Of a DNA stretch of 64,000 nucleotides, positions 13,063 through 54,594 are shown one piece after another; position 1 is the first letter of the stretch, and each line of letters begins with the position of its first letter. The stretch is from Bdellovibrionales bacterium. GTDB lineage: Bacteria; Bdellovibrionota; Bdellovibrionia; Bdellovibrionales; UBA1609. The translations under genes and the position numbers were made by a program. The DNA lies in NCBI GenBank assembly GCA_965116155.1, contig OZ220488.1, positions 450,420 to 514,419 on the forward strand. Reading direction: 5' to 3'. A model generated the notes under the pieces. That model was not told the origin of the DNA. It did not search any database and worked only from the letters and a program-made list of their open reading frames with translations.

Positions 13063-13114
13063 AACATAAAAGCCACCCCTAATGCCTAAAGGCATTAGGG
13101 GTGGCTTTTATGTT
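13063..13114. terminator. 24-bp hairpin straddling the secF stop codon (candidate bidirectional terminator)
   Basis: CATAAAAGCCACCCCTAATGCC (13065-13086), loop TAAA, GGCATTAGGGGTGGCTTTTATG (13091-13112), plus two further A:T pairs. The secF stop (13079-13081) is inside the left arm. The right arm and loop encode IKATPNAFRH. Confidence 0.7.
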
Positions 13115-15816: not shown

Positions 15817-15838
15817 GGCTCTTTACCCTTTTTTGCCC

Positions 15839-18876: not shown

Positions 18877-20382
18877 CTAATTTTTAGGCACCAACAGCTC
18901 CGCCGTAGCAATGCTATCTATCAAGGACTCCTCTACCTCGTACTGACGCCCCGGCAAAGTCTGCACCACCCAGCCCGTAGATGCTTTAGTCCACGACAGA
19001 CGGAACAACTTTTGATACTCCGACCCAAAAAGCTCCACCACGTTCTCAACCTTTGAAAAATCATGCTGCGCCTTAGATAAAAACTCCTTCACTCTCAAAC
19101 TAGCCATCTGCTCTAATAAACGCTCCACTCTTTCGTGCGGCACGCGTACCTTGTCATTATTGGTGACCCATTTTTCTCGCAACACCAACTCCACCACGTC
19201 CTCACCCGCACGCATATAACGCAGCTTAACCACCTCGTCCTTATCAAACTTAAACGGATACGCACGGTCCAATAAATCCGAAACCGATTTGTCCAGTGTT
19301 TTTAAAAAATCCTCCTTAATCCCATACACCGCCTTAGTATGGTTCGACACCGCATAAGCCACATCTCCCTTTAATGCACTCAGCCTCAACTCCCACAAGT
19401 CCGGCGGCGTTTCCTTAGCAGCGGCTGCATCTGTATCAGCTTCTGCAGCTGGCTTTGTCAGGTAGGCCCGCACCACCCGCTCTGCTGGACGTAGCTTGTA
19501 TTCCGTGAGCAGTTTGGGAGTTTTTTCGCTCTCAACAACGCTCGTTGCTTGCAAAAACCTTAGCCCCTCTATCAAAGACTCCACCTCAGACTCATCCAAC
19601 CGAAGTTCGTCTTCCTCTAAAAAACCCGAAACCTTCCATTGTCCGTCCACTAAACTCAAGGTGTAATTTAAATCGGGCCGCTTGGTGTTAAAAAACTCCA
19701 CCCGTCTAAAATCCCCAAAGCCCTCCTTGCGAAACAAGTGCTTCTCCCTTAAATCATTGGGCTGTTTTTCTAAAAAGTTCACTAAACTCTCATCTGCCAA
19801 ATACACCGCACTCGCTTTAGGGTCTCCCGACGCTAGGCTAAGCGCCTCGCTCTGAGTGTTGGCAGACCACTTTTGCACATGGAACGAACCATCAAAAGCC
19901 CTCTCACTACCCACCTTAAATACATAAAACTTCCCCCCCCTACCCTTGCCCCTGCCCTCCTTTTTAGAACCCAGCAGCAGCCTCCACATACCAGGGCCTT
20001 TTAAGCCAAAAGCCAGTATGTCCGCCTCCGCATGCGGCGCCTCTATAGTGCGCAAGTTTAGGTTAGAAAAATCCTCTAAAAATAAATCCACCTCCATCTG
20101 AGCCGCCCGGTCCTCAAAAGGCCACACAAGCCCCCACACGCCTTGGCTCTTTTGAAGCTCCAGCACCCTGCCCTGATTACTAGCCTGGCCCTTGCCGCCT
20201 CCGTCCTGATCCAGGACCCGCATCAGCTTAAAGCTATGCAGGTCCTGCACGTCCACATGCCCCAAAAGCTGCGCGGCCTGGAGCTCCTGCTTCTCTACAC
20301 GGTCTGTGTTGTCATAAAACCAGTACGTAAAACCCACCACACATAAAGTGCCCACAAAAAATGCCGCTGTCCCAAGGTTCAT
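18877..20382 (-). CDS. DUF4340-like periplasmic protein partnering the GldG-type ABC system
   Basis: It has an N-terminal TM segment (MNLGTAAFFVGTLCVVGFTYWFY) followed by a large soluble region. Its position downstream of the GldG-like gene is typical for DUF4340 proteins. The ATG at 20382 overlaps the upstream stop as ATGA. The longest ORF starts at 20400. Confidence 0.55.
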   Translation of the reverse strand: MNLGTAAFFVGTLCVVGFTYWFYDNTDRVEKQELQAAQLLGHVDVQDLHSFKLMRVLDQDGGGKGQASNQGRVLELQKSQGVWGLVWPFEDRAAQMEVDLFLEDFSNLNLRTIEAPHAEADILAFGLKGPGMWRLLLGSKKEGRGKGRGGKFYVFKVGSERAFDGSFHVQKWSANTQSEALSLASGDPKASAVYLADESLVNFLEKQPNDLREKHLFRKEGFGDFRRVEFFNTKRPDLNYTLSLVDGQWKVSGFLEEDELRLDESEVESLIEGLRFLQATSVVESEKTPKLLTEYKLRPAERVVRAYLTKPAAEADTDAAAAKETPPDLWELRLSALKGDVAYAVSNHTKAVYGIKEDFLKTLDKSVSDLLDRAYPFKFDKDEVVKLRYMRAGEDVVELVLREKWVTNNDKVRVPHERVERLLEQMASLRVKEFLSKAQHDFSKVENVVELFGSEYQKLFRLSWTKASTGWVVQTLPGRQYEVEESLIDSIATAELLVPKN

Positions 20383-21980
20383 GCGTTTTTGCGCCTCCAA
20401 AAACTCAACCCACTGAGCAACAACAACAGCACAGGCAAGGCCACACCCGCCACCACAATCAACTTGCCCGTTGTAGGGGTCAAAGTAATCTGTGTGCGTG
20501 ATAGCTCCGGCGCCCTAATACTAATCAAATCTGTATCGTCACTCAGATACGAAACCAAGTTCAAAGCCAAGTCCCTATTGTGCCCTTGGTGCAGCAACTG
20601 ATTGCTCAAAAAATCCGTGTCCCCCACCAACGCCACACGAAAAGCCTTAGATTCCGCCGCGTCTTCCTTGGCCTCATTAGCAGCATTTTCATCTGCTGCG
20701 TTTTTATCCGATGGTTTGTTTGCTGTGTTTTCTTCAGACATATAAACCAACACTTTAGAGTCTGTGTTGCTCCAAGCGTCTTGGTTGTTTAGGTCCTTGA
20801 GGTTTTCGATGCCAAAAACCATCCGCGGCGCCGTACTAACCAAAGCATGGGTGCTTATGCCATCAGTATCCGGCAAGGCCTCTAAGTGCGAAGCCTCGTC
20901 GAACAAACTTAACGCATTGCCTGTTTTAAAATCTTTTGTAACCGGGTGCGCGCTATCAAAATGTGTGCCCAATATGGACGTCACCCGCCCCATAGCCTGC
21001 ATCTGCGGCATAATCAAATACCGCCCCCCATACTTTAAACCCACCTTAGATAAAAACCCCTCCAAATTAGTGCGCGCACCGGGGTCCCAAGTGATCATCA
21101 CCCGCCCGCCAGACTCTATATAATCCTCCAAGGCCTTAAGCTCCATGGGCTGAAACTGCTGCTGCGGGCCCAAGATCAAAAGCACGCTCGCCGCCATTAA
21201 AGCCTCAGCCCCTTGCTGCATCAGGTTCACCTGGGTCACATCGTACGCGGCCTCTACCAAGGCCGCACGAAAACCCGAAACATCCCCAGGTTGAGAGGCC
21301 TGCAAGGACCTCTCGCCATGCCCTTGCAGCACCACCAACTTGCGCGCCTCTAAACGCGTTGCCTTAACCATAGCCTGCGTCAGTTGAGGCTCCTTATGAT
21401 CAGGCTCCACACGCAGCCTTTTGTTCTTATACTCCACAAAAACCCCTTTAGGGTCGCGCTGAGAGCCCAAGTACTCCTTTGCCAGAGCCGGGTTTTTGTA
21501 AGAATCCACAAAGCGCACCCTAACCCACGAGCCTTCGGCTTTGTAAAGATCCAACAGCTGCGCCATTTGGCGCCTAAAGGCTCCGCCGTCCACCACACCA
21601 GAATGAAACACCAACACCTGCAGGTCCTCTTGCAAAGACTGCACAAGCTTGGTGCTTTGGTCCGATAAACTAAACACCCGGTTTTCGCTAAAGTCTTTCG
21701 TGCCGTCCTTTAGTACGCCTAAAAAATTCAAACACCCCACCACAACAACCCACAACACAATAAGCACACCCATATTAAGACCGCTTTTTGTGGTTTTTAA
21801 AAATAAAAACTCCACATACAATTTGAAATCAAAAGCCAAAGCCCCCAGCATACCTACAGCCGCACCACCCACAAGACCCCACATAAAAGGCATCCAAGCG
21901 CCCAGGATGTACTTGATCACCACCAAAGCCAAAAGACACAAGGCCCCAAAGCCCCACAAAAATTTCGACTTACCACTCAT
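20379..21980 (-). CDS. GldG-family auxiliary component of an ABC-type transport system
   Basis: It has N-terminal TM helices, a large periplasmic domain and a C-terminal TM segment (..LIVVAGVALPVLLLLLSGLSFWRRK). It follows an ABC ATPase and ABC-2 permease, a GldA/GldF/GldG-like arrangement. Confidence 0.6.
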   Translation of the reverse strand: MSGKSKFLWGFGALCLLALVVIKYILGAWMPFMWGLVGGAAVGMLGALAFDFKLYVEFLFLKTTKSGLNMGVLIVLWVVVVGCLNFLGVLKDGTKDFSENRVFSLSDQSTKLVQSLQEDLQVLVFHSGVVDGGAFRRQMAQLLDLYKAEGSWVRVRFVDSYKNPALAKEYLGSQRDPKGVFVEYKNKRLRVEPDHKEPQLTQAMVKATRLEARKLVVLQGHGERSLQASQPGDVSGFRAALVEAAYDVTQVNLMQQGAEALMAASVLLILGPQQQFQPMELKALEDYIESGGRVMITWDPGARTNLEGFLSKVGLKYGGRYLIMPQMQAMGRVTSILGTHFDSAHPVTKDFKTGNALSLFDEASHLEALPDTDGISTHALVSTAPRMVFGIENLKDLNNQDAWSNTDSKVLVYMSEENTANKPSDKNAADENAANEAKEDAAESKAFRVALVGDTDFLSNQLLHQGHNRDLALNLVSYLSDDTDLISIRAPELSRTQITLTPTTGKLIVVAGVALPVLLLLLSGLSFWRRKNA

Positions 21981-21995
21981 ATAACTTGCTTCCCC

Positions 21996-22769
21996 TCACG
22001 CTCTCCAGCGCGAACTCTCAATGACCCTGTCTGTTAAAAACAAAAACGTCGCAATAAAGCTTACAAAAAACAGCACCGCGCTGAGTTTTAACCCGCCATA
22101 GATAAAGGGCTCAAAATGATCCTGCAAAGATACATGCTCCAATACATGCCTTATTGGAGATTCGCCCAAAGCCACCATGCTGCTGTCTAAGACCCACAAA
22201 GATAAAATCAAAACCGTCGTAATAATAAAGCTCAGCATAGGCGACTGAGTCAGAGACGACACAAAAAGCCCCAAACTCACATAGGCACCTAAAATAAACG
22301 CCATACCCAAAAACATTATCAACAAAGGCATCCAATTAAAGTCGGCCACCAAGGCCGTGCCAGCAGGGTACAAAAAAGCTAGCATCAACAAAAACAGCAC
22401 CCCCACATAGCCTCCCAAAAACTTGCCCAGCGCTATGTGGCGCGCGCACAAAGGCGCAGTCAAAAGCAGGTCGTACGCACGGCTGCGCTTGTCGTCGCTA
22501 ATTAAACCCATAGTAAAAGCCGGCACAATAAATAAACAAAGCAAATGCACCAGCCCCAGGTGGTTGATAAAAAGCGCATGGTGAATATTGCCCGCCTCAG
22601 CTCCTCCGTAAGGGCCGGGAGCTCGGCCACTCTCTAAAGCAAACTGCGACAGCTCACGCAAAAAGCGCATACTCCACAAGCCCGTACAGCCCACACCTAT
22701 CAGGTACAACTTAGGGCTCTTTATAAGGCTTTTTAGCTCTCGCAAGCCGATCACCCAAACCGCCCTCAT
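21996..22769 (-). CDS. ABC-2 type transporter permease (GldF-like)
   Basis: Polytopic 257-aa membrane protein. Its start overlaps the ATPase stop (ATGA coupling). Confidence 0.7.
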   Translation of the reverse strand: MRAVWVIGLRELKSLIKSPKLYLIGVGCTGLWSMRFLRELSQFALESGRAPGPYGGAEAGNIHHALFINHLGLVHLLCLFIVPAFTMGLISDDKRSRAYDLLLTAPLCARHIALGKFLGGYVGVLFLLMLAFLYPAGTALVADFNWMPLLIMFLGMAFILGAYVSLGLFVSSLTQSPMLSFIITTVLILSLWVLDSSMVALGESPIRHVLEHVSLQDHFEPFIYGGLKLSAVLFFVSFIATFLFLTDRVIESSRWRA

Positions 22770-23740
22770 AACTCTGCCTCCTGAGAGCCTGCTAACATGC
22801 CCTCGTCATCCTCTACCAAACTAATAAACGCGCTCTCCAACTGATCAGGATCCCAAAGTTTAATACCCATTTGCAGGTCGAGCACACCCCGCAGAACCTG
22901 GTCCGTAGACACGCTTTTGCTCACCAGCTGCAGCCAGTATTCGCCATCACTTTTGGCGTCCACGCGGTTCACACCTTGAATAGAAGCCATTTTAGCGCTC
23001 AGATCCTGCTCGCGCTCCTCTAGCCTCACACGACAAATGGGCTTGTCGACCAAACTGTTGATAGGCCCCTGGGCCACAATGCGGCCCTTGTTAATAATAA
23101 TGGCCTCATCGCATGTAGCCTGCACCTCAGACAAAATATGGGTCGAAAGCATAACCGTGTGCTGCCCCTTGAGCTCGCGCACCAATTTGCGCACCTCCAC
23201 CATTTGCTTAGGATCTAAACCCGCCGTAGGTTCGTCTAGAATCAAAATCCGCGGGTCCGACACCAAGGCCTGTGCCAGGCCCACCCTTTGCTTAAAGCCT
23301 TTTGATAAGTTCTGAATCAGCCGGTTTTGCACGGATTGCAGGCCGGTCTTTTCTACCGCAGTATCCACATTAGCCCGCACTTTGGCGCGCGGCACACCCT
23401 TTAAGCGTGCAGCAAAAACCAAATACTCCCGCACCAGCATATCGGTGTACAAAGGCGGCACCTCGGGCAGGTAGCCGATTTGCTTTTTGACCTCAACGGG
23501 CTTTTCAAAAACATCATACCCGCCCACTTGAACCGAGCCCTTAGTGGGCGCCATAAAGCCCGTAATAATCTTCATGGTAGTGCTTTTACCCGCACCATTA
23601 GGCCCCAAAAAGCCCACCACGCTGCCCTCGGGCACATTAAAGTTCAGGTCCCGCACCGCCTGGTGCGAGCCGTAGCTTTTGCACAGCCCATGCACCGCAA
23701 TAACCCCAGACCGCCGATTTTTAGTACTCACATCATCCAT
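22766..23740 (-). CDS. ABC transporter ATP-binding protein (GldA-like)
   Basis: Walker A GPNGAGKST, signature LSKGFKQRVGLA, Walker B ILILDEPTAGLD. Confidence 0.9.
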   Translation of the reverse strand: MDDVSTKNRRSGVIAVHGLCKSYGSHQAVRDLNFNVPEGSVVGFLGPNGAGKSTTMKIITGFMAPTKGSVQVGGYDVFEKPVEVKKQIGYLPEVPPLYTDMLVREYLVFAARLKGVPRAKVRANVDTAVEKTGLQSVQNRLIQNLSKGFKQRVGLAQALVSDPRILILDEPTAGLDPKQMVEVRKLVRELKGQHTVMLSTHILSEVQATCDEAIIINKGRIVAQGPINSLVDKPICRVRLEEREQDLSAKMASIQGVNRVDAKSDGEYWLQLVSKSVSTDQVLRGVLDLQMGIKLWDPDQLESAFISLVEDDEGMLAGSQEAEL

Positions 23741-24538: not shown

Positions 24539-24734
24539 AGCGCTAGCCGCATGCTCTGGTCCAAGCGCCGTCTGCCTGATAGTCCCCACAGGGGACGATC
24601 ATCAGGTAGACAAGCGCCCCACAGAGCATGGGGCGGCCTATAAGGCTTCTATGAGCCTGTAGCCTTGGGTGTTCGGTAGACCCAAGGCGGCCACACTCCC
24701 GTCAAAGCCCCGTGCGATGGGCAAACACAAGTTA
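24535..24734 (+). repeat. Modular palindromic intergenic repeat, cleanest A-B-C unit, spanning stop codon to stop codon
   Basis: Module A is TTAGAGCGCTAGC at 24535-24547. Module B is a long hairpin at about 24550-24630. Module C lies at 24635-24731 (GGCCTATAAGG..GCCTGTAGCCTTGGGTG..ACCCAAGG..CCGTCAAAGCCCCGTGCGATGGGCAAACACAAG) and directly abuts the dacB stop at 24732-24734. Confidence 0.9.
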
Positions 24735-26138
24735 ACGCGTGAGTTCTTTAATTAAGTTGTCCATAAAGGCACGCGCACTGTTGGTTTTGGGGCCGTTGTA
24801 GAAAAAAGCAAACACCCGCTCAGCGCCGCTGCAAGGCGTACGCACATAGCCCGCTAGTGATGCCACACCCGAAAGCATACCCGTTTTTGCCCGAACCAAC
24901 GAGCTTACATCCGGCATGCGCCCGCTCAGCGAGCCCTCCCCACCGCCCACGGCCAAAGCCGACCGAAACTCCACACCCAAGCGCAAGTGCTGGCCCATCT
25001 TGCTTAAAAACTCCCCCACATCCGCGGGGCGAAAGCGGTTTTTTCTCGATAAACCCGAAGCACTATGCACCTGAAAATCCTTTAAGCCCTTAGATTTTAT
25101 ATAATCCGTAAGCACCCTCAAGCCTGCCCCAGGCTGCTTTTGTACCTTTAGCCCCAGGTGCGATACCAGCATCTCAGCCATGGCGTTATTTGAAAATCTC
25201 ATAAAGCCCTTTAGTATATCCTTTAAAGCAAGGCTTTTATGCGATGCTAAAAGCCTAGCCCCTTGTGGCGCCTCACCCACGCGCAGCCCACTACGCACCG
25301 CAACCCCTCGCTCCTCTAAAAAGGCCTTAAAATTCCAAGCACTCCAGCAGGCTGGGTCACCCACAATACTGCGGTACCAAAGGCGCTCCTTTGAACCCAG
25401 CGCCACCTGCCCCGACACATGCAGCTCACCTGCGCCTATACAGCGCCCGTTTTTTTGTGTGCCTGGGATCACCTGTATTTTTGTTTGTGCCCGCGCAGCA
25501 CGGCGCACCGTTAGCGCCTTGTTGCGCACAGTGAGCAGCCCATCCATAGGATCTAAACGGATGCGCGCTTTATCGCCCACTTGCTCACCCGGCCCCAGGC
25601 GCACATTGACCACGCTCCAGTTAAAGTTCATAGCACCAACAGGCGCATTATAAGCCCTTTGCAAAGAGGCTAGCCCACGCCCAGATCGATCGCGGCTCCA
25701 GCGGAACAGGCTGTCATCCACCACAATATCTTCCACCTCTAAAGGGCCCCAGCGCAAAAGTTCCTGCACCAAAAGCCACATAGACTCTGATACAAAGCTA
25801 GGATCCCCACCTCCCACCAAGTAAAGATCCCTAGCGCCACTGGGGGCCACAGGGCCTGCGCGCACCTGGGTCACAAAGCGCTCCTCGGCACCCAAAAGCT
25901 CCAAAGCCGCCCCCGAAACAAACAGCTTGGTCACAGAGGCCGGAATAAACGCCCGCCCCTCATTCAGCCCCCAAGCCTTAGGCCCAGGCCCAGGACAAAC
26001 ACCACCCCCATCACCCACAGGCCCCAAGTAAAGCCCCAGGTGCTGCTTAAGCAGGCCATGCTTTTTTAAGTTTTTATCTAAAAATGCGCTCCACTCCGGC
26101 GCCGCCCAGACTGGCCCAGCACCCAAAAGCATAAGCAT
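24732..26138 (-). CDS. dacB: D-alanyl-D-alanine carboxypeptidase/endopeptidase (PBP4, peptidase S13)
   Basis: SxxK (ASVTKLF), SxN (FSNNAMAE) and KTG (RAKTGML) boxes. The start is uncertain. The longest ORF reaches 26378 but overlaps the divergent lspA-like gene; the ATG at 26138/26132 gives a short signal peptide (MLMLLGAGPVWA-AP). Confidence 0.8.
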   Translation of the reverse strand: MLMLLGAGPVWAAPEWSAFLDKNLKKHGLLKQHLGLYLGPVGDGGGVCPGPGPKAWGLNEGRAFIPASVTKLFVSGAALELLGAEERFVTQVRAGPVAPSGARDLYLVGGGDPSFVSESMWLLVQELLRWGPLEVEDIVVDDSLFRWSRDRSGRGLASLQRAYNAPVGAMNFNWSVVNVRLGPGEQVGDKARIRLDPMDGLLTVRNKALTVRRAARAQTKIQVIPGTQKNGRCIGAGELHVSGQVALGSKERLWYRSIVGDPACWSAWNFKAFLEERGVAVRSGLRVGEAPQGARLLASHKSLALKDILKGFMRFSNNAMAEMLVSHLGLKVQKQPGAGLRVLTDYIKSKGLKDFQVHSASGLSRKNRFRPADVGEFLSKMGQHLRLGVEFRSALAVGGGEGSLSGRMPDVSSLVRAKTGMLSGVASLAGYVRTPCSGAERVFAFFYNGPKTNSARAFMDNLIKELTR

Positions 26139-26223
26139 AAAAACCCAGGCCAATGGCCCCTTTAGGTGCTTAGAACTTTTGGCACGCCCGTAAGTATGGG
26201 TAAATAATAAAAGGGCACAACTT

Positions 26224-27219
26224 ATGAGCGCTAACATTCCACAACCCCCCGCTGCCGATGCTGCTGCCATGCGACCCAGAGACTGGGCTTGGGTGGTTGG
26301 CGTTTTGCTCGGCACTTGGTTATTTGACTTTATCAGCAAAAGCCTCGTGTACCAAGGCCTGCAACTGCCACCCGGCACCCATATCCAGTTGGGGCCGTTT
26401 TATGTGGTGCAGCACCTTAACCCCGGCATGATGCTAGGGAGTTTTTCCACTCTGCCACCTATTATACGCAACGTAAGCCTTTGCACACTGGGGGCGTTTT
26501 TGTTTAGCCTTTACTGCGCCACTCAGTACCTTATGGTGCAGCGCTTCTTTTGGCTGCGCGTAGGCTTGTCGCTTTTTATGGCAGGTATATTGGGCAATAT
26601 TAGTTGCCGAGTGCTGTTTGGCAGCGTTGTTGACATACTGGTAGTGGATTTAGGTTTTTTCCGCACAGCGGCATTTAATGCTGCCGACCTTGTGCAGTGG
26701 GTGGCTTGGCCCATTTTGGTGGTGCAAATTATAAAGCACGCCGAATACTTTTGGCCTGAGCGAGACAAACGCGGCAGTAAAAAAGTTTTGTCCCAATTTC
26801 AAAACCACCACACAGCCGTTTTGCTCAGCATTGCAACAGCGTTTTGCCTTTTAAGCGGCATGCTAGGGTACAGCTTTTTAAAAAACGCCCTACTAAGTCC
26901 CGAGCAGTCAGACCTATTGCTAGAGGCTTTTTTAACTTCTCATATCATGACGAGCCTTGTATTTTTTGTAGCCTTGTTTTTATTTGGCAGAAGGCTTAGC
27001 ACGCGCATTGCGGGGCCTCTATACGCGCTGAAGCGTTTTGTGAACTCTTTACACAAAGGGGCAAAGCCTAAATTTCAGCTCCGAAAAGGCGACCACTTTG
27101 CTAAGTACCTGCACACACTGGCTCAAGACCTTAAAAAAAGCCAAGCCCGCAAATCCGCGCGGCCAGCCAAGCGCACACCCCGCAACGCACTAAAACGCCC
27201 AACAACCAAGAAATCATAA
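26224..27219 (+). CDS. Signal peptidase II (LspA)-like membrane protein lacking one catalytic Asp, fused to 2 TM segments, a HAMP-like segment and a basic tail
   Basis: LspA boxes are NPGMMLGSF, GILGNISCRVLFGSVVD (canonical GNxxDR reads GNISCR; the Cys codon TGC is at 26605-26607) and FNAADLV (intact). Two further TM helices follow, then RRLSTRIAGPLYALKRFVNSLHKG..FAKYLHTLAQDLKK (HAMP-like). Confidence 0.65.
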   Translation: MSANIPQPPAADAAAMRPRDWAWVVGVLLGTWLFDFISKSLVYQGLQLPPGTHIQLGPFYVVQHLNPGMMLGSFSTLPPIIRNVSLCTLGAFLFSLYCATQYLMVQRFFWLRVGLSLFMAGILGNISCRVLFGSVVDILVVDLGFFRTAAFNAADLVQWVAWPILVVQIIKHAEYFWPERDKRGSKKVLSQFQNHHTAVLLSIATAFCLLSGMLGYSFLKNALLSPEQSDLLLEAFLTSHIMTSLVFFVALFLFGRRLSTRIAGPLYALKRFVNSLHKGAKPKFQLRKGDHFAKYLHTLAQDLKKSQARKSARPAKRTPRNALKRPTTKKS

Positions 27220-27263
27220 AAATACACCTCTCCTAGTGACAGCCTCGGCTAAAAACCTGTACA

Positions 27264-30200
27264 GTGCCACCCATTGTGGGCGCCTGTGTTTTACGTATAG
27301 TACTAAGTTTGTCGCTACTTTTAGCTGGCCCTTGGGTGCAGGCGGAGCAGAGCTCTCCCTATTATGCAGCAAAGGCCGCACAGGATTTTTTGCCCAATGC
27401 GCAAAGCGAGCAAGAGTTTTTAACTCATACCCAAGCCCAGGACATGCTTTACCTCACCCAGCAAGAGCATGTTGTCATAAAATCCGGCACTAACACCCAG
27501 GACGTAGAAGCATTTTCTGTAAGCCAAGCCGAAGTGCGCAACCCCAACGCACTGGCACCTAATGATTTAAGCAAACTCGACATCAGCTATGTGCAGGCTT
27601 CTAGCACCCAAAGCCAAGACGCCGAGCTGCATATTTCGCTAAAGCGCGGCAAGCGCACCGATAGGCATGTGGTGCGTGGTTTGCCATGGTTTACCGCGGC
27701 GCCTCGCGCCAAAAATATTGACAACCTTTTAAGGTTTGCCACAATGCAAGGCTTGCACGCCGTGCCACTGCGTGTTTTTAGAGACTCCTTATTTACAGCG
27801 CCTTTGCCGGTGCTGCATGTTTTGCCAGCGCCTCCTATAGAAGGAGCGCAAATTACAGGCATACAGGTGCAACACTTGGTGACTAAGGAGTTTTTGCGCA
27901 TGGCCCAAAGCGAGCCTGCTTACGCGCCGCTTTTAGAAAAGTCCATACTGCAAGACTCTTTTGCAAACAACCAATGGCTAAAAAGTGGCGACGTAGCTTT
28001 GCGCATTAAGCACCCCCGCGGAAAAGATTTTAGCTATCTGCTTAGCCACGAGCACGAAAGCCTAGAAGTCGCAAAACGACTAGCACTGATTTATTGGTGG
28101 GCGCTTTTTTATGACCCCGACCAAGTGGATGCACGCGCCGTAAACAACCTGTACCAAGAGTATGCAAGCAGCATTATGAAGCTGCCGCAAACACAACTCC
28201 ACCAGCCTGAGATTGTGCGTGCGCTAGGGCAGATGATGCGCATGGGAGATACAGCGCTTAAAAGCGCCGTGCCTCAATCCGGTGGCAAGGGGTCGACTCT
28301 TACGCGCGTGGCCCGTATGGAGCGCAGCAGTTTTAGCATACAAGAGCAAGCAAAAGCTTGGGAGAAGGTGCAGGGTCTAGAGCAAAACACGCTGCAAAAT
28401 CTACAAAAAAAATCCTACCAAAAAGCTGTGGGGTTTTTGTCTAATAAAGTAAGCCACATTGAACCACACAGGTGGCGTGCTATGGCGCGTTCTACCAAAA
28501 TGGTGCTCGGCCTGGGCGGCGCCGCTGTAGCTGCACTATTAGGAGCCTCCGCGCAGCATCCTGATACCGCGGCTCACTTGGCTAACTACACCTTGGGTCA
28601 GCTACAAAAAATGGGTCAAGGCGTGCGCGGTGTATGGCACCAATTGACCTCAGAGGGCGGCGTACTGCACCACCTGCCTATAGCGCAAGAAGATGTTAGC
28701 TATTGGTACCTGGGGCTGGGCACCTTAGGTGTGGGAATACTGCTGCATGCTGCGGTAGCAATGAATGGCCTATTTGTACGCTCTAACCACACGCGATCTT
28801 GGACCCCGTTTAGAAAGTTCTACCTTACCACTTTAAAGCTTATGGCTTTTATCAATTATCCCGTGCAGGCTATGCTGTGGGAGACCATTTTAAGACAAAA
28901 ACTACTTTACGGTAGCTTAGACCACGGGCTTAGCCTAAGCCGCACCGAACAAAATGGCCAAGTAACATGGCATAGTATTTTGCACGCACCCTGGGCTAAA
29001 AACACTGCAATCCACGCACAGGGAGAAAAGCTCAACCAGCTTGTTGAAGCATCGCAAAAAAAACGCGCCGCCTACTTAATGGCCTTAGCGCGCGTAGGCA
29101 TGCAGCACCAAATACCCTTGGCACCCTTACTATTGGCCCATGTTAACAGCCTACATGGCAGCATGCCTGCAGAATATAGCGCAGACTTGGTGGGTTTTGA
29201 AAAAAGCATAGCAGCGGCCAGGTTTTTGCAAAAAGCCTATGCCGATTTTCAAAACACAAAGCTTAGCGGGGAAGATTTGCAAAAAATAGCCCAAGGGGAG
29301 GATTTTGCAAAATACCAACACTCCTTGCAACAAGTGGCTGCAAGTAGCGCAGTTGGCACAGGTAAAAACACACCGCCTAAAATAAAAAAACGTATCCTGC
29401 AGCTTGTAAGCCGCTCGGCCAATAGCCATGCGATGAGTTTTTTGCTGTTTGGCCGCGAGGGGAGGCTGCTGAGTTTAAGACTCGAGCAGATCAACCCCTC
29501 GCAGCATGTAACAGACGTAGCCCGTACAGCTGCCATTAAGGATTATATAACCTCGTTTTGCATTATTGCCCCATTTATACAGCTCACGCCAGCGGTGAGC
29601 GATGCGGGCCGCTTGGTAGCGGCACCCTTTGTACCCGATGCCTTTAGTGGCTACACTCCGGCACAGATGGCAACAGTGCCCAAAGTGCCCACTATGGGAG
29701 GAGAGCAGGTGGTGCTGTCGGCCAACTTATATCTTTCGGCCGAGGCGGAACACCTGGACGAAGAGCTGCACGAAGAGCAGCATAAACCTTTAGAGGGCAG
29801 CTACTTTGCCAAAGAAGGCGCATCAAGCAAAGACAAAGCCCAACAAAGGCGCCAAGCCCAAGAGCTCAGCCGGCAGCTGTTTAAGCAAACGGGTGTCTCA
29901 TTTAAACCGAAAGATCTTTTGCTGCACGAGCACACCCAAGGCTTTTTGCAAGGGCTTAAAGTTATGGGGCAAGACCTTAAACAGGGCGGTATAAAGCGCG
30001 CCTTTAGGCAGCATTTGTCTGTGATTAAAAAGCTAATCGGTGGGGGCTTGCAGGGGCAGGTTTCAAGTGGCTCGATGTGGATGTCTATCGGCACCATAGC
30101 AGGCGTAATGCTAAGCTCGCAGGTAGCAAGTGGTTTTGAGAGCATCAAAGCCAGTTTTGGTTTTGGAATAGTAAGCGCCATACAAATGATTATGATTAAG

Positions 30201-30845
30201 CACAGCTTTATTGGTTACACACAGGTGTGGCCTTATACCTTGTACTGGAACAGTTTGTTAAGAAAAAACGGCGCAGAGCATGCTGCGCAGCTAGAACGCA
30301 GTTTGTTTGATATACGCACCGGCATTAAGTTAGGCCATACGAGCCAGATGCAAAAGGGAGTGGCCAGCCTTTTAAGCCAATACCGGGACGCAAAAATTAC
30401 AAAAAAAGATAATGCCGATGGAGCGGAAATTAAGCCTAAAACTCCTAGTAGTGAGGCGCTGTTTGCCGTATGGAAACCTGAGACAGCCTCCAACTACACC
30501 GAAGAGCAAGCGGCATGGCTTTATAAGTACGCCTTAAACACCCCACCCTACCCCACCAAGCCGAACACTTTGTTAAACAAGTGGCTCCTTACCACAGGCC
30601 TGGGCGTAGTAGGCTCTACGGTACTCGCCTTTGCTTGGGTTTATGAGGTCATTTTGGGAGATTTACAAACCATACGAGCAGAACATGGAGACGCAGCTGC
30701 TTGGGAGTATCTGGGACGCATGCTGATGCTGTCTGCCGCAGCCTTAGCAGGCACAGTGGGCGTGTTAAAGCTCGGCGTATCTGAAAAGCCATTAAAAAAA
30801 ATAAAATCCAAACTCAGCCAGTGTGTAAAACTATTAAAGACCTAA
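27264..30845 (+). CDS. 1193-aa orphan protein with a signal peptide and paired hydrophobic helices
   Basis: This is a long uninterrupted ORF. The N-terminus VLRIVLSLSLLLAGPWVQA-EQ is signal-like. Hydrophobic pairs occur near residues 415-505, 925-975 and 1105-1172. I recognised no catalytic motif. Confidence 0.7.
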   Translation: MPPIVGACVLRIVLSLSLLLAGPWVQAEQSSPYYAAKAAQDFLPNAQSEQEFLTHTQAQDMLYLTQQEHVVIKSGTNTQDVEAFSVSQAEVRNPNALAPNDLSKLDISYVQASSTQSQDAELHISLKRGKRTDRHVVRGLPWFTAAPRAKNIDNLLRFATMQGLHAVPLRVFRDSLFTAPLPVLHVLPAPPIEGAQITGIQVQHLVTKEFLRMAQSEPAYAPLLEKSILQDSFANNQWLKSGDVALRIKHPRGKDFSYLLSHEHESLEVAKRLALIYWWALFYDPDQVDARAVNNLYQEYASSIMKLPQTQLHQPEIVRALGQMMRMGDTALKSAVPQSGGKGSTLTRVARMERSSFSIQEQAKAWEKVQGLEQNTLQNLQKKSYQKAVGFLSNKVSHIEPHRWRAMARSTKMVLGLGGAAVAALLGASAQHPDTAAHLANYTLGQLQKMGQGVRGVWHQLTSEGGVLHHLPIAQEDVSYWYLGLGTLGVGILLHAAVAMNGLFVRSNHTRSWTPFRKFYLTTLKLMAFINYPVQAMLWETILRQKLLYGSLDHGLSLSRTEQNGQVTWHSILHAPWAKNTAIHAQGEKLNQLVEASQKKRAAYLMALARVGMQHQIPLAPLLLAHVNSLHGSMPAEYSADLVGFEKSIAAARFLQKAYADFQNTKLSGEDLQKIAQGEDFAKYQHSLQQVAASSAVGTGKNTPPKIKKRILQLVSRSANSHAMSFLLFGREGRLLSLRLEQINPSQHVTDVARTAAIKDYITSFCIIAPFIQLTPAVSDAGRLVAAPFVPDAFSGYTPAQMATVPKVPTMGGEQVVLSANLYLSAEAEHLDEELHEEQHKPLEGSYFAKEGASSKDKAQQRRQAQELSRQLFKQTGVSFKPKDLLLHEHTQGFLQGLKVMGQDLKQGGIKRAFRQHLSVIKKLIGGGLQGQVSSGSMWMSIGTIAGVMLSSQVASGFESIKASFGFGIVSAIQMIMIKHSFIGYTQVWPYTLYWNSLLRKNGAEHAAQLERSLFDIRTGIKLGHTSQMQKGVASLLSQYRDAKITKKDNADGAEIKPKTPSSEALFAVWKPETASNYTEEQAAWLYKYALNTPPYPTKPNTLLNKWLLTTGLGVVGSTVLAFAWVYEVILGDLQTIRAEHGDAAAWEYLGRMLMLSAAALAGTVGVLKLGVSEKPLKKIKSKLSQCVKLLKT

Positions 30846-30906
30846 TGCGTATTAGCCGATAGTCCTGCTAGGGGGTGTGTGCTTGGTATGCGCGCAGGCG
30901 GGTCCT

Positions 30907-32385
30907 ATGGGAAAATCTCAAAAAACACCCAAACAGCCGCAAAGTCCCTTGGCAGTCTTTAATACTAACAAGGTGTTTTTGGTTTTTTTGATAGGTGCGT
31001 GCTTTTTTTTGCCTATCGTGTATAGCTCTTGCGAAGATATAGAGTTTGTAAAACGCCCTGGCAAAATAGACACCACCCCACCTAATATAACAATTAACAC
31101 TCAAAAAAGCGTTAGCTCTATTACCGAGCAAGATACGGCTAAGGTTTATTTTGTGGCAAAAGACGGGGACTCGGGCGTGGCAAAAACTCTATGCCGCGCA
31201 GCACAGGTGGACGCCATAGAAGATGAAAAGTTTGGGCGCTGTAAAAGTCCATTTATAATCAACATACTGCAAGGCAACTATCAGTTTGAAGTAAAAGCCT
31301 TGGACAAAGAAGACAACGAAAGCTCTGTTGCAACACATAATTGGTGCCGCGGCCCTATGTGTGGTCGCATAGCGCATACTGGCAGCTTGCACAGCAGCGT
31401 TCAAAATGACAAGGTTGGGATTTTATTTGTTGTAGACAACTCTAGCTCTATGAAAAAAGAACACCGAGCTCTTTCTAAACACACGCCCCAGTTTTTGGAC
31501 CGATTTTCAGATTTGGATTATAAAGTCGCTGTAAGTGTTACGGATTATCATTTAGAAAAAAACGCCGAGCACCCTTTTAGGCCTATTGTATCAGGAAGCG
31601 ACTGCGCTTCGCACCGCACAGTAGAATCATCTGGTGCAACGGCTTTTGTTATAGACTCCCAAAATGCAGACCTTGCACAGGCGGCGGTGGATTTGTCGGC
31701 TACGATTATCTGTGTAGGGACTAAAGGGCATAGTGAAGAAAGCGGATTGGGTAGTTTTTTAAATTTGGTAAATGCTTATGATAGTAGCAATGCAGAAGCT
31801 CGCTCTTCTAATGGGCTTAATTTTTTTGATAACTTACAACACCTGGTGGTAGTTCTGATTACAGACGAAGGTGACAGATTTGTGCATAGAGAAGGCTTGT
31901 CCGCTGACGATATAAAAACCCGCTTCCACACAGTGTTTCCGGATACGGCTTTTTTGTGGCATTCTTTTGTGCAAATGAAGCATGTAATTAACTCTCATCC
32001 CCGATTTAAAGGGATGTACCTGTACAAGGATATAGCGGACCTCACCCAAGGCAGCGTACAGGATGTTTTAGACACTGCAGCTTATGGCACCGTGCTGACT
32101 GGTATTGCAGATTTAACACGCAAGCATATTATACGCGCGCGTTTACAGTGTGCGCCGGTGAACTACCAAAACCCACAGGACTACGATCCTGAAAACCCTG
32201 AGCACCGCTTGATGGAGGTTTTAGATTCACAAGGCACGCCCCTTAGTCCTCAGCCTATGTGCAAAATCGATCGTCACCTTAAAGTGCAGTGCTTTAGCTG
32301 CAGTGATCCACAAGACCTCGATACATGCGACACCCCATTAGATGCAGGCGAGTATACTCTTAAGTACCAATGTTTAGCCAATTAG
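30907..32385 (+). CDS. Lipoprotein with one Cys-paired Ig-like module and a vWA domain with an intact MIDAS motif
   Basis: The signal/lipobox-like sequence is FLVFLIGACFFLPIVYSS-C. The Ig-like module is ..LCRAAQ..CKSPFIINILQGNYQFEVKALDKEDNES... The vWA motifs are ILFVVDNSSSM (DxSxS) and VVVLITDEGD. It is a paralogue of the C-terminal half of 2332-6687. The stop codon lies in repeat module A. The longest ORF starts at 30877. Confidence 0.75.
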   Translation: MGKSQKTPKQPQSPLAVFNTNKVFLVFLIGACFFLPIVYSSCEDIEFVKRPGKIDTTPPNITINTQKSVSSITEQDTAKVYFVAKDGDSGVAKTLCRAAQVDAIEDEKFGRCKSPFIINILQGNYQFEVKALDKEDNESSVATHNWCRGPMCGRIAHTGSLHSSVQNDKVGILFVVDNSSSMKKEHRALSKHTPQFLDRFSDLDYKVAVSVTDYHLEKNAEHPFRPIVSGSDCASHRTVESSGATAFVIDSQNADLAQAAVDLSATIICVGTKGHSEESGLGSFLNLVNAYDSSNAEARSSNGLNFFDNLQHLVVVLITDEGDRFVHREGLSADDIKTRFHTVFPDTAFLWHSFVQMKHVINSHPRFKGMYLYKDIADLTQGSVQDVLDTAAYGTVLTGIADLTRKHIIRARLQCAPVNYQNPQDYDPENPEHRLMEVLDSQGTPLSPQPMCKIDRHLKVQCFSCSDPQDLDTCDTPLDAGEYTLKYQCLAN

Positions 32386-32837
32386 AGCGCTAGCTGCGTA
32401 AGCATCAGAGTGCTAGCCACATGTTCTGGGCTAAGTGCGTAAGCATAAAAGTGTTAGTGAGGGTGCCATGGCCAGAGAGCGCCGCCGATTGCGCACCTTC
32501 AGGTGCACAAGGCAAGCGGTCCATGCCAGGGCGCCCTCACGTGCTGGATAAAGCGCAGTCTCCCTGATAGTCCCTGCAAGGGACGACCATCAGGGAGATA
32601 AGCGCCCCACAGAACATGTAGCGACCTATGAAGCTACTATGGCCCTGTAGCGAAGTGCGTAAGCATAAAAGCCTAGTCTGAGCATTTGAGCAATGAGTGC
32701 AGTCCTCTTGGGAACATCCTGCAAGGATGAAAAACCCAGGAGGACAAACGACAGACTCAAATGCTCAGGCGGGCTAGAAAGAAGGGCCAAAGGCCCGCAG
32801 CGACCACACTTACGTCAAAGCCCCTTGCATTGAGCAA
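32382..32837 (+). repeat. Mosaic/nested repeat region (modules A, E, B and C with internal insertions)
   Basis: Module A occurs twice (32382-32394 and 32407-32418). The left arm of B (ACATGTTCTGGGCTAAG) is interrupted by GCGTAAGCATAAAAGTG (32437-32453) plus a hairpin insert and then resumes at ..CTGGATAAAGCGC. Module C is split by GCGTAAGCATAAAAGCC (32657-32673) plus a ~100-nt hairpin insert (TGAGCATTTGAG..CTCAAATGCTCA). Confidence 0.8.
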
Positions 32838-32876
32838 CACAAACTAATTAAAAGCTACGCTTTTAATTAGTTTGTG
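32838..32876. terminator. 18-bp perfect hairpin straddling the pilQ stop codon
   Basis: CACAAACTAATTAAAAGC (32838-32855), loop TAC, GCTTTTAATTAGTTTGTG (32859-32876). The pilQ stop TAA (32867-32869, minus strand) is inside the right arm. Confidence 0.65.
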
Positions 32877-35125
32877 AACATGGCATTGCTATTTTTGCTG
32901 AGCAAACGAGGCGTTAGAAAGATTAAAAGCTCATTCTTAGTAACATCCCAAGTGCGAGACTTAAACAACCAACCCAAAATAGGAATGTTTTTCAGTATGG
33001 GCAAGCCTTGGCCACCTTGACGTTTTTCTTGATGGTACACACCCGCAATAACAGCCGTCTCACCACTTCGCACCAAAATGTTCGTACTCACCTGGCGGCC
33101 ACTAGTAGGCTGCGCACTCGCGCCACCGCTCTCAATACGACCACCTGCCGACTGACGGCTCACACTCACCTGCAAACGCACATCCCCATTAGGAGTAATA
33201 GTAGGCGTCACATTTAAACTCAAACTTACCGGTGTAGTCGATACCTGAGTCGACACCTGACCACTATTGTCCCTAACGGCCGAAAAAGCCACACTCTGTG
33301 TAGACTGCGAAATCGTAGCCGCCTGATTGTTCAAAGTCACAACCCTAGGGGCCGAAATCACTTCCGCATGCTCGTCTACCTCACCAATAGCCAATGCGGC
33401 ATCCAAAGTGCCCAAAAAGTTAAACGCCCCTATATTAAAATGCGCCGTACCCACACCACCCACATTGCCACTAGAAGGCCTAACATCAAAATCATGTGTC
33501 AACAGCAAAGGACCCCCATTGTGCCCGCCCGTCTCAGATAGAGTGTTGGTAAGGCCCGGTGAAGTACCAAAAGACACTCCCAAACTGCGCGAGAAGCTCT
33601 CATTTGCTTCCACAATTTTGCTCTCAATCATCACCTGCTCAGGCACCGTGTCTGTTTTAGCAATAAACTCCTGCGCGGCCTTAACTTGCTCCTCACATGC
33701 AGTAACTATTAAGCGGTTGCGCTGTGCATCGGATATAACCGTACCCTTTAAACCGCCAGGAGTCTTCGGCTCAAGCAAAGGAGTAATCTGGGTCACTGCC
33801 TGCCCAAGCTCTGTATAGTTAACTGGAATAATCACTGTCTTGGGTGGACAGGTCTGCAAACGCGCACGCAAAATGGCGTCCATCTCCCTTTGCTCCACTG
33901 CCAAGTTTTGCAAAGTATCAATACGCAACACCGAACCCTGGCGCAAATAACCAAGTTTTTTAGATCTTAGAATTAAAGTGAAAATCTCATCCCAAGGCAA
34001 ATTCCGCAAACGCGCTGTTATGCGAATTTGCTTCACTCCATCTGCAACCATCATGTTGATATTGCTTGTACGGGATATAAAATTAATCACATCCATCAAC
34101 AAAGCATCTCGAACTTCTAGGTTGATCCTTTTGCCGTAATACTTTTTAGGGCCACGCAAAAATTCATCTAATGCCTGTGCATCTAAAGGCCGCTCCATGC
34201 GCTGCGACTCATCGTAGTCCGAGCCAAAATCCTGGTTCTGACTGCCCGGCACCGTTTCCATCACACCCACAGAGTCCGTTGTCACAGGAGCTATGTCATT
34301 GCGCAAAGTGGGCTGAGCACTGCCTGCCTCACCATTCTCAGGCGCCGCACCCGCTTTTGCAACATCTGCCAACTCACTTTGACTTAGTGTAGAGGGTGAA
34401 ATAATTAAGCGCGAGCCCTCTTTACGCACCTCAGGCCTGTGGTACTCATCCATTTGTACAACCAGATAAAACCCCTTCTGACCACGGCTGTTATTATAAG
34501 GCGACACCATCTTAAACGGAGCGCCAAACTCTTTAATAATATAGTCCCGCTTAAATTGTGGGGCTAACACCGCACCCCTGAGCTCTACAATAAACTGTTT
34601 GCTGGCGGGTTTTTCTCTTGTATCAAAATCAAACCCTCCCTCGAGCTTAACAACAAAAGACCCCCCAGATTCTGCAGCCATATAACCCATGTCTACAACA
34701 CGCGACTCCCCCATTAAAGACGGAGCAGAATCCGGCTCCTCTTGCACCGTATCTGTCGCGAGAGTGTCGTCTATATCAAAGTCATCCTCTTCCGAAGCAC
34801 CTGGCGCAGCGCTGTCCTCGGTAACACTTAGCTCCCCTTCTAAGCCCGCATCTAAGTCAAAATCATCTCCTCCTGCCACCGTATCGGGCTCCACATCTAA
34901 CTCAGCGCCCAGATCAGCAGCCAAATCATCGCTACCGGAATCTGCAGCACTGCTACCATCAGCCCCTGTGCTAGCTCCCGTACCCGCCGAAGCCTCCAGG
35001 TCGCCTATAACTTCATCAATATCTTGAGAACTCACACCTGCCCGGTCAGAGCGATCGGGCGACGCACAAGAAACACAAAAAAACAGCATAAGCAGCGGTA
35101 ATAAAAAATGCCTATCTTTTCTCAA
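32867..35125 (-). CDS. pilQ: Type IV pilus secretin PilQ (lipoprotein-type signal, acidic low-complexity N-terminal region, AMIN-like domain, secretin domain)
   Basis: The C-terminal secretin signature is GETAVIAGVYHQE..GLPILKNIPILGWLFKS..ELLIFLTPRLL. The N-terminus is MRKDRHFLLPLLMLFFCVS-C. It is the last gene of the pilMNOPQ order. Confidence 0.9.
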   Translation of the reverse strand: MRKDRHFLLPLLMLFFCVSCASPDRSDRAGVSSQDIDEVIGDLEASAGTGASTGADGSSAADSGSDDLAADLGAELDVEPDTVAGGDDFDLDAGLEGELSVTEDSAAPGASEEDDFDIDDTLATDTVQEEPDSAPSLMGESRVVDMGYMAAESGGSFVVKLEGGFDFDTREKPASKQFIVELRGAVLAPQFKRDYIIKEFGAPFKMVSPYNNSRGQKGFYLVVQMDEYHRPEVRKEGSRLIISPSTLSQSELADVAKAGAAPENGEAGSAQPTLRNDIAPVTTDSVGVMETVPGSQNQDFGSDYDESQRMERPLDAQALDEFLRGPKKYYGKRINLEVRDALLMDVINFISRTSNINMMVADGVKQIRITARLRNLPWDEIFTLILRSKKLGYLRQGSVLRIDTLQNLAVEQREMDAILRARLQTCPPKTVIIPVNYTELGQAVTQITPLLEPKTPGGLKGTVISDAQRNRLIVTACEEQVKAAQEFIAKTDTVPEQVMIESKIVEANESFSRSLGVSFGTSPGLTNTLSETGGHNGGPLLLTHDFDVRPSSGNVGGVGTAHFNIGAFNFLGTLDAALAIGEVDEHAEVISAPRVVTLNNQAATISQSTQSVAFSAVRDNSGQVSTQVSTTPVSLSLNVTPTITPNGDVRLQVSVSRQSAGGRIESGGASAQPTSGRQVSTNILVRSGETAVIAGVYHQEKRQGGQGLPILKNIPILGWLFKSRTWDVTKNELLIFLTPRLLSKNSNAMFTN

Positions 35126-40517: not shown

Positions 40518-40620
40518 AACCCCCAGTGACCTCCCCCTTTGCCGTTTGGTGGCAGCCCAACTGACAGGCACCACAAGCGCCGGTGCCCAGTAGGGCCAAA
40601 TAACAGTCCGCGTAGCGAAT

Positions 40621-40666
40621 ACCCAATTAGGTGCATAAACATTTAGGGTTATGCATCTAATTGGGT
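40621..40666 (-). terminator. 17-bp hairpin (one G.T) straddling the gspE stop codon
   Basis: ACCCAATTAGGTGCATA (40621-40637) pairs with TATGCATCTAATTGGGT (40650-40666) across a 12-nt loop. The right arm encodes the last codons TQLDA plus the stop (40649-40651). Confidence 0.55.
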
Positions 40667-42328: not shown

Positions 42329-42340
42329 TTTTAGATTTTT

Positions 42341-54471: not shown

Positions 54472-54594
54472 GGGTTGTGCTGACACTTTTATATTTACAC
54501 ACTGTGTTATTGGAATAATTCTTTTCCCTCCCTGGTGTTTTGGTGCTTACAATTTTGGCAAGGTTTTTAACAAACACACAGGGGGTACATCATT

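Follow-up and report, generated by a model that had tools for sequence, protein, structure and literature searches.

We analyzed a 64,000-nucleotide (nt) stretch of DNA, referred to here as the window, from a Bdellovibrionales bacterium (assembly GCA_965116155.1, contig OZ220488.1, positions 450,420 to 514,419). Three consecutive plus-strand genes lie at positions 26224 to 32385 of the window. Gene 1 (26224 to 27219, plus strand) encodes a 331-amino-acid signal peptidase II (LspA). Gene 2 (27264 to 30845, plus strand) begins with GTG in the open reading frame (ORF) listing and encodes 1193 amino acids; the public gene call starts at 27276 and yields 1189 amino acids. The longest ORF for gene 3 spans 30877 to 32385 on the plus strand, and its real start is the ATG at 30907, which gives a gene at 30907 to 32385 and the 492-amino-acid product of the public gene call. 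The product that begins at this ATG has the N-terminus MGKSQK in common with its paralogue P0063. With gene 3 starting there, the intergenic gaps are 44 nt (genes 1 and 2) and 61 nt (genes 2 and 3), in agreement with the original prediction. The flanks also agree with it. Divergent dacB, encoding the D-Ala–D-Ala carboxypeptidase PBP4, lies upstream of gene 1, and a repeat-filled 481-nt spacer separates gene 3 from convergent pilQ, which is followed by pilP, pilO, pilN, and pilM. The original prediction had joined the three genes into one uncharacterized envelope module. Our analysis indicates that the region is probably a lineage-specific juxtaposition of three independently distributed envelope genes and not a dedicated three-component system. 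It is best read as a long LspA of the housekeeping type that has dacB as its partner and, after it, two exported proteins specific to the lineage.

The module did not hold up when gene neighborhoods in other genomes were compared. No LspA-like or von Willebrand factor A (vWA) gene was present in any of the seven other neighborhoods of the gene 2 family, and neither gene 2 nor gene 3 had a counterpart beside gene 1 in its three other contexts. When the three window proteins were used in tblastn searches of the fetched loci L001 to L010, relatives of gene 1 were found only in L005 and L006, relatives of gene 2 were found only in L001 to L004 and L007 to L010, and no relative of the gene 3 product was found; L012, L013, and the place of P0072 were covered by gene tables only. 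Gene 3 had been proposed as a part of the module and has no detectable orthologue, its one relative being a paralogue in the same genome. A coherent three-gene system is not supported: the genes differ in their phyletic distributions and in the neighbors that they have elsewhere.

The long-form LspA gene was read in three other contexts. In Bdellovibrio sp. CP106855, the gene has a divergent Peptidase_S13 gene (dacB) upstream and a convergent Lon gene directly downstream. In an Oligoflexia metagenome-assembled genome (MAG), dacB is nearby upstream, with one response-regulator/GGDEF gene in between, and a convergent RNase T gene is directly downstream. On the contig that carries P0051 (Bacteriovoracaceae according to one source), there is no dacB upstream, and a convergent BON-domain gene is directly downstream. 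The long-LspA gene is thus the end of its transcription unit in all three contexts, and no relative of gene 2 or gene 3 is near it in any of them. The divergent dacB, and not genes 2 and 3, would be the evolutionary partner of gene 1.

The relatives of gene 2 are found in different company. The closest homologue, P0002 (L001 and L002, from two assemblies), is 39% identical over its full length and has a SpoIIE-like gene upstream that is unrelated to gene 1 and a convergent short-chain dehydrogenase (SDR) gene downstream. P0066 (L004) has an OPT transporter gene downstream, and P0072 is accompanied by small unannotated genes. Four other members have hydrolase-like neighbors of 678 to 905 amino acids. 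A 905-amino-acid protein is encoded immediately upstream of P0064 (L003, positions 815 to 3532), and its 788-amino-acid homologue (E value, 4e-53) is encoded immediately upstream of P0065 (L007/L008; L007, positions 5585 to 7951). A third homologue lies 3 kb from P0070 (L009) on the other strand (about positions 3224 to 5100, minus strand), where it is interrupted by an assembly gap. P0067 (L012) has a different secreted protein, of the Abhydrolase_1 family, encoded 16 nt upstream (L012, positions 5949 to 7985). The three homologous proteins (L003, L007/L008, and L009) are the ones without a Pfam family, and each has a signal peptide and the alpha/beta-hydrolase motifs HG (HGxGT) and GRSAG. 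A secreted alpha/beta-hydrolase may be the real functional partner of the gene 2 family; the secreted hydrolase that adjoins family members elsewhere is absent from the 64-kb window.

The gene 1 product is a long-form signal peptidase II typical of Bdellovibrionota. Residues 30 to 170 matched the Pfam family Peptidase_A8 (PF01252) over profile positions 4 to 141 of 142, with a score of 55.6 bits (cutoff, 25; E value, 8.9e-15), bearing out the LspA likeness that had been predicted. The protein also aligned to Staphylococcus aureus LspA in a HMMER comparison (E value, 1.1e-5). Its score of 36.2 bits against the NCBIfam lspA equivalog model TIGR00077 is below the cutoff of 73.95; this is not peculiar to gene 1, since the long-form family as a whole falls below the lspA equivalog cutoffs because of its divergence. 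A search of 5.8 billion proteins yielded 59 homologues with 27 to 39% identity, nearly all of them 290 to 335 amino acids long. The named homologues all belong to Bdellovibrionota (Bdellovibrio sp., Oligoflexia, Bdellovibrionaceae/Pseudobdellovibrionaceae, and Bacteriovoracaceae).

The catalytic dyad of LspA consists of Asp118 and Asp136 in S. aureus and of Asp124 and Asp143 in Pseudomonas aeruginosa (PMC6952399, PMC9360617). In gene 1, the corresponding segment (26626 to 26688, plus strand) contains Asp137 (VVDI) and Asp155 (FNAAD), both intact. These residues align to VVD118F and FNIAD136 of S. aureus LspA and are invariant in the family alignment. Around its active and substrate-binding site, LspA has a cluster of 14 highly conserved residues, which include S. 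aureus Asp109 (PMC6952399). Gene 1 keeps 13 of the 14. The exception is Cys128 in GNISCR, encoded by TGC at 26605 to 26607 (plus strand), which replaces the conserved noncatalytic Asp that corresponds to S. aureus Asp109. At this position of the GNxxDR motif, all 59 homologues have Asp and gene 1 alone has Cys. Because TGC is two base changes away from GAY, Cys128 is not a single-base error. We considered whether Cys128 stands in place of a lost catalytic Asp and rejected this, as the dyad is formed by VVD and FNxAD according to the S. aureus and P. aeruginosa numbering and is intact. Judging from the dyad, gene 1 probably encodes an active enzyme despite its family-unique cysteine.

Compared with the LspA enzymes of known structure (MEROPS A8; 5DIR from P. 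aeruginosa and 6RYO from S. aureus), with which it shares the full-domain Peptidase_A8 match, the dyad, and the 13 conserved residues, the gene 1 product is about 160 residues longer, its gene adjoins dacB, and its GNxxDR Asp is changed to Cys in this genome only. The extra length, as in the 59 Bdellovibrionota homologues, consists of two additional hydrophobic helices and a C-terminal module. In gene 1, the Peptidase_A8 core (residues 30 to 170) is followed by strongly hydrophobic helices at residues 197 to 215 and 236 to 254 and then by a conserved helical module of about 50 amino acids. This extension is common to all gene 1 homologues, in which the two strongly hydrophobic helices precede the module SHRIAGPxYAFERF...LKLRxGDEFKHLE. 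In the family alignments, the part encoded at 27004 to 27111 (plus strand) reads RIAGPxYA(F/L)xRF...LRxGDxF; it follows the sixth helix and is HAMP-like by position only. The module does resemble HAMP (PF00672) in standing directly after a second transmembrane helix, in its length of about 50 residues, in the conserved Pro/Gly of its first helix, and in the acidic start of its second helix. Unlike HAMP domains, it is followed by no output domain. The C-terminal 149 residues (183 to 331) had no Pfam match to PF00672 at an E value of ≤10, and a 24-sequence profile of the module, compared with all PDB sequences, gave chance matches only and no HAMP protein. The HAMP identity given to this region in the original prediction was accordingly rejected. 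The four-helix aspartyl-protease core would cleave the signal peptide of diacylglyceryl-modified prolipoproteins. The two further helices joined to it would lie in the membrane, and the conserved helical module would lie in the cytoplasm.

Gene 2 belongs to a real, rare, and uncharacterized family with no known relative by sequence or predicted fold. A word-indexed search returned P0002 as its sole relative (1278 amino acids, 37 to 40% identity over 99% of the length). An exhaustive HMMER search of 1.84 billion representatives recovered 24 proteins, gene 2 included, at an E value of ≤1e-3 and 5 proteins at ≤1e-30; most members are 1,060 to 1,380 amino acids long. The family aligns over its full length, with Q67, G163, Y549, D760, Q815, K979, G984, Y985, and C1187 invariant. 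Members for which names are available come from Bdellovibrio, and a scan of 185,579 species-representative genomes found a single relative, in the MAG of Bdellovibrio sp. J124. The JGI metagenome and IMG/VR collections yielded none with such search patterns as the family allowed. Nothing in Pfam, NCBIfam, PDB sequences, PADLOC, or PHROGs matched gene 2 significantly, and genes 1 and 3 likewise had no match in PADLOC or PHROGs. Searches with the gene 2 family profile against PDB sequences and with 20 members against Pfam gave scattered chance matches only. An AlphaFold2 (AF2) model built on a 20-sequence alignment had a mean pLDDT of 71.5 and a pTM of 0.69 and contained a beta-rich domain at residues 67 to 260 followed by an all-helical body. 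Foldseek searches with this model returned no match at an E value of <0.001 in PDB or BFVD, and no internal repeats were found within the protein. The earlier description of gene 2 as an orphan without a known domain is therefore correct insofar as no characterized homologue was detected by sequence or Foldseek, and too strong in that the protein has 23 relatives.

As had been predicted, gene 2 has a signal-like N-terminus. Read from its sequence, this is a Sec-type signal peptide of residues 1 to 27 (27264 to 27344, plus strand) with the cleavage site VQA|EQ and a hydrophobic core with a free-energy (dG) value of +0.4. AXA-type N-termini like this one are present in five of the six other members that were read (P0002, P0065, P0066, P0070, and P0076). 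The beta-rich domain (residues 67 to 260; 27462 to 28043, plus strand) contains the invariant Q67 and G163 and is the most confidently modeled part of the protein, with pLDDT values mostly of 81 to 93 and two blocks at 66 and 72. Three hydrophobic helix pairs had also been described, and the helices exist. The first pair, H1 (residues 411 to 431) and H2 (481 to 503), is encoded at 28494 to 28772 (plus strand) and has K/R-rich flanks; its helices are some 50 residues apart, separated by a 49-residue low-confidence loop, and do not form a closely spaced pair. H3 and H4 (residues 929 to 979; 30048 to 30236, plus strand) are weakly hydrophobic and rich in Gly, Ala, and Ser, and this segment carries the best-conserved motif of the family, K979-x-S-F-x-G984-Y985-x-x-x-W-P-Y. 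H5 and H6 (residues 1104 to 1170) and a cationic C-terminal tail with seven K/R and one D/E are encoded at 30573 to 30842 (plus strand). The hydrophobicity of these helices is marginal. Biological-scale dG sums for H1, H2, H5, and H6 range from +1.4 to +3.9 kcal/mol, and H3 and H4 fail even a lenient threshold, whereas values of about 0 were obtained for the gene 2 signal peptide and for both C-terminal helices of gene 1. In distant members, the equivalents of the hairpin helices contain charged residues.

The charge pattern of the family is also unusual. Gene 2 is strongly basic (125 K+R versus 93 D+E), and across the family K/R residues are concentrated on the hairpin flanks and in the C-terminal tail (mean net charge, +4.6), while the loops between the helices are neutral or acidic. 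With the bulk of the protein in the periplasm, positively charged flanks are the opposite of the positive-inside rule, which suggests that the helices either do not span the membrane of the producing cell or enter a membrane from the side of the bulk. After removal of the signal peptide only two cysteines remain, among them the invariant Cys1187, which lies six residues before the C-terminus (codon at 30822 to 30824, plus strand). All 20 aligned family members have a single cysteine 5 to 12 residues from the C-terminus within a K/R-rich tail that is otherwise not conserved. A disulfide to a partner, lipidation, and metal binding are all possible roles for Cys1187. These features describe a Sec-exported, strongly basic protein of about 130 kDa with a presumptive role in the envelope. 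Both the N-terminal beta-rich domain and the body of helices would sit outside the cytoplasm, with membrane contact made by marginally hydrophobic, Gly/Ala-rich hairpins and by the cationic tail at the C-terminus. Buried hydrophobic helical hairpins serve membrane insertion in colicin-type pore domains and secretion-system translocators and as the bilobed hairpins of Inc-type proteins. Gene 2 resembles these proteins in its paired, weakly hydrophobic, Gly/Ala-rich helices with basic flanks within a large helical protein. It differs from them in having a Sec signal peptide and an N-terminal beta domain, in its much larger size, and in the absence of sequence or fold similarity.

Gene 3 plausibly encodes a surface protein with a vWA domain and a metal ion-dependent adhesion site (MIDAS), as far as its motifs indicate. 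Residues 23 to 42 form a hydrophobic anchor or lipoprotein signal (IGAC32, YSSC42) and are followed by an immunoglobulin (Ig)-like region at about residues 60 to 150 and a vWA-like region from residue 166. The DxSxS MIDAS motif DNSSS (residues 177 to 181; 31435 to 31449, plus strand) comes directly after the predicted beta strand VGILFVV. TDEGD (residues 319 to 323; 31861 to 31875, plus strand) comes after the beta strand VVVLI and contains a candidate MIDAS Asp at the "TDG" position of vWA strand beta4. The original prediction of a lipoprotein with an intact MIDAS vWA domain thus holds for the presence of the two motifs, which stand in the strand contexts expected for the MIDAS residues DxSxS...T...D; no Thr was assigned to this set, the family matches are below threshold, and the lipobox is noncanonical. 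Gene 3 scored 21.5 bits (cutoff, 400; E value, 4.4e-5) against CglD over the 158 residues from 177 to 334, 14.8 to 16.2 bits (cutoff, 25.7) against TssR_VWA, and 17 bits (cutoff, 700) against the Bdellovibrio MIDAS adhesin model. These three independent subthreshold matches start at the same beta1-DxSxS position, and no vWA family matched gene 3 above its threshold. The AF2 model, made from a two-sequence alignment, is poor (pLDDT, 40.8) and shows an alternating beta/alpha pattern; a Foldseek search with it found no vWA structure, and the matches of a model of this quality (pLDDT, 41) are meaningless. In the Ig-like region, gene 3 shares a weak Y_Y_Y-type signal with a 1451-amino-acid protein encoded at 2332 to 6687 of the window. 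That protein has many Big_13, Y_Y_Y, and PKD Ig-like repeats and is possibly another surface adhesin.

The only gene 3 homologue in the large protein collection is P0063, a 724-amino-acid paralogue encoded on the same 1.6-Mb contig outside the window (31% identity by BLAST). P0063 has the same N-terminus and cysteine pattern, an extra insertion of about 130 residues, a linker rich in Pro, and DPSSR as a degenerate form of the MIDAS motif. Cysteines 32, 42, 96, 112, 147, 152, 233, 415, 452, 462, 465, 474, and 489 are kept between the two proteins. The shared N-terminus, the hydrophobic stretch (with IGAC32 and YSSCEDI), and the conserved cysteines fit an exported, disulfide-bonded protein. Both candidate lipobox cysteines are conserved in P0063. 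IGAC32 fits a relaxed lipobox and has an h-region of only nine residues (K at −10), and YSSC42 has Tyr at −3. Because neither cysteine is in a canonical lipobox, lipoprotein status is plausible and not proven. In Bdellovibrio bacteriovorus, a group of MIDAS lipoprotein adhesins includes Bd0875, which is surface exposed and required for prey invasion (PMC11003981). With the Bdellovibrio MIDAS adhesins (Bd0875; PMC11003981) and Myxococcus CglD, gene 3 shares an N-terminal export or lipobox-like signal, the DxSxS motif where an alternating beta/alpha region begins, small beta-rich accessory domains, weak local matches to NF052240 and NF033765, and a Bdellovibrionota-type genome. It differs from them in scoring far below the family cutoffs, in lacking an orthologue outside its own genome, in its noncanonical lipobox, and in a vWA fold that its poor AF2 model (pLDDT, 41) did not confirm. 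By its motifs, gene 3 resembles this kind of adhesin without membership in the family. The Cys-rich product would be an Ig-like and vWA/MIDAS protein that is exported, rich in disulfides, and probably anchored by a lipid or a helix, and its likely role, suggested by motif-level similarity only, would be metal-dependent ligand binding or surface adhesion, as for the Bdellovibrio MIDAS lipoprotein adhesins.

The surroundings of the three genes were also surveyed. A consensus scan found a sigma-70-like promoter match (TTGGCA-18-AATAAT, 10 of 12 positions) at 26179 to 26208 on the plus strand, in the divergent region between dacB and lspA and 15 nt upstream of the gene 1 ATG. This was the only good promoter-like site, with none of its kind upstream of gene 2 or gene 3; since the number of promoter-like sites in the region equals the expectation from shuffled sequence, it carries little weight. 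No convincing terminator was found between genes 1, 2, and 3. The longest dacB ORF (24732 to 26378, minus strand, GTG at 26378) would overlap the start of gene 1 by 155 nt. The Peptidase_S13 match of dacB begins at residue 135 and its orthologues are 474 to 476 amino acids long, so that its true start is probably near 26138 to 26237, which leaves a short divergent promoter region. RNA and repeat scans gave no tRNAs and no meaningful tandem repeats, and an Rfam scan of 25500 to 33500 gave a single subthreshold chance match. Farther out, the window encodes a GspE/PilB-type ATPase, a GspD-type secretin, and a GldG-like ABC system, and the segments at 18877 to 23740 and 39003 to 44755 are dense in envelope and motility machinery. 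The GldG-like system comprises ABC_tran, ABC_transp_aux, and DUF4340, the GspD-type protein is a second secretin and has an N0 domain, and a gene with a glutamate synthase domain is wedged between pilM and the gene for the PilB/GspE-type ATPase.

The spacer between the convergent stops of gene 3 and pilQ (32386 to 32866) is full of direct and inverted repeats that are modules of a family recurring across the window. One module is the 18-nt sequence AGTGCGTAAGCATAAAAG, present in seven copies versus 0.06 expected. Another is the hairpin CCTGATrGy-(variable inner stem-loop)-rCyATCAGG, present in four copies versus none expected, whose inner stems vary and stay complementary. The third consists of 13-nt inverted arms about 65 nt apart. 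The family was also found at 12680 to 13080, 15817 to 16670, 24563 to 24663, 45750 to 45805, 54486 to 54503, and 58699 to 58729, and a 101-nt stretch of the spacer has 83% identity with the intergenic region that separates dacB from a gene for a Fis-type regulator. Rfam has no family for the repeats of the gene 3/pilQ spacer. They look like a repetitive extragenic palindrome (REP)- or miniature inverted-repeat transposable element (MITE)-like element or a family of structured terminators.

Several observations weigh against the view that the three genes are merely juxtaposed. They are on the same strand with gaps of 44 and 61 nt and no convincing terminator, which is compatible with one operon, and a young operon could be functional. 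A lipoprotein peptidase beside a putative lipoprotein is suggestive, and the whole neighborhood (dacB, pilMNOPQ, the GspE/GspD-like genes, and the GldG-like ABC system) is related to the envelope or the pilus. For gene 2, the inspection of reasonably close genomes was confined to that of P0002, which at 39% identity is itself distant, and the location and topology of the gene 2 product are deduced solely from its sequence. Genes 1 to 3 may share one transcript in this genome, as a local arrangement. A bolder version would make this lineage-restricted operon one unit in which the variant LspA with Cys128 matures the vWA lipoprotein and the 1193-amino-acid protein anchors or exports it, possibly together with the type IV pilus machinery. 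The short gaps, a good promoter-like site that only gene 1 has upstream, and pilQ facing gene 3 across a single spacer would all suit such a unit, as would the noncanonical lipobox of gene 3 and an LspA that, unlike its 59 relatives, deviates at a conserved substrate-site residue. We nevertheless consider it distinctly unlikely. The genes co-occur in no other genome examined, the genome of P0002 has gene 2 without either partner beside it, and gene 3 lies outside the pil operon, facing it in convergent orientation. In addition, synteny with dacB makes gene 1 the orthologue of a stand-alone long LspA, most simply the general enzyme.

Individual genes could also be read differently. The original prediction saw gene 1 as a sensor-like pseudopeptidase, that is, a catalytically dead protein. 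In favor of this, the Asp that only gene 1 has replaced by Cys128 is among the 14 highly conserved active- and substrate-site residues (PMC6952399); the lspA equivalog score is also below its cutoff (36.2 versus 73.95). Yet both dyad aspartates (Asp137 and Asp155) and the other 11 conserved residues are kept, the entire long-form family is below the equivalog cutoffs through divergence, and neither HAMP nor any other sensor domain was demonstrated, so that a dead enzyme is unlikely. For gene 2, the position between lspA and an adhesin gene would be incidental if the product were a secreted, prey-directed protein that is exported in soluble form with its weakly hydrophobic hairpins buried, inserts into a target membrane from outside, and acts with the secreted hydrolases and adhesins of a predatory member of the Bdellovibrionota. 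The AXA-type signal peptide, the cationic tail, and helices far less hydrophobic than the bona fide membrane helices of the same locus are in keeping with this, as is the placement of K/R beside the helix pairs instead of in the loops between their helices, the reverse of Sec-inserted hairpins with a periplasmic bulk. So are the origin of the named members in Bdellovibrio and the secreted alpha/beta-hydrolases with HG and GxSxG motifs that adjoin family members. However, we found no structural similarity to pore-forming or translocator proteins and identified no secretion-system signal in gene 2; the core helices of LspA are at +2.8 to +3.7, so the hydrophobicity range of gene 2 also occurs in true polytopic helices, and a predatory lifestyle is assumed from taxonomy only. 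We regard this account as improbable. Less probable still, and in our view very unlikely, is the broadest proposal, in which the 1193-amino-acid protein founds a new giant Sec-exported family of Bdellovibrionota that inserts hairpins into a membrane, possibly that of the prey, together with hydrolases elsewhere and with a MIDAS adhesin from the same transcript here. If hairpin insertion by gene 2 were true, the protein would be a previously unrecognized part of an attack or envelope-remodeling apparatus. The juxtaposition of three independently distributed genes thus remains our preferred explanation of the locus.

Read in this way, the locus is of modest remaining interest, which lies in the gene 2 family (its charge and hydrophobicity pattern, Cys1187, and the link to hydrolases) and in a long LspA with a unique substitution. 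The long LspA of Bdellovibrionota is a distinct form, usually encoded beside dacB, with a conserved C-terminal module of no assigned function. In gene 1 this antibiotic target enzyme has a unique substitution, Cys128, adjacent to its substrate site. Gene 3 would be a further, divergent representative of the MIDAS adhesins, a kind of protein known to be important when Bdellovibrio invades prey. The gene 2 family, with a fairly confident predicted structure and with hydrolase neighbors elsewhere, offers a starting point for finding unknown envelope or predation factors.

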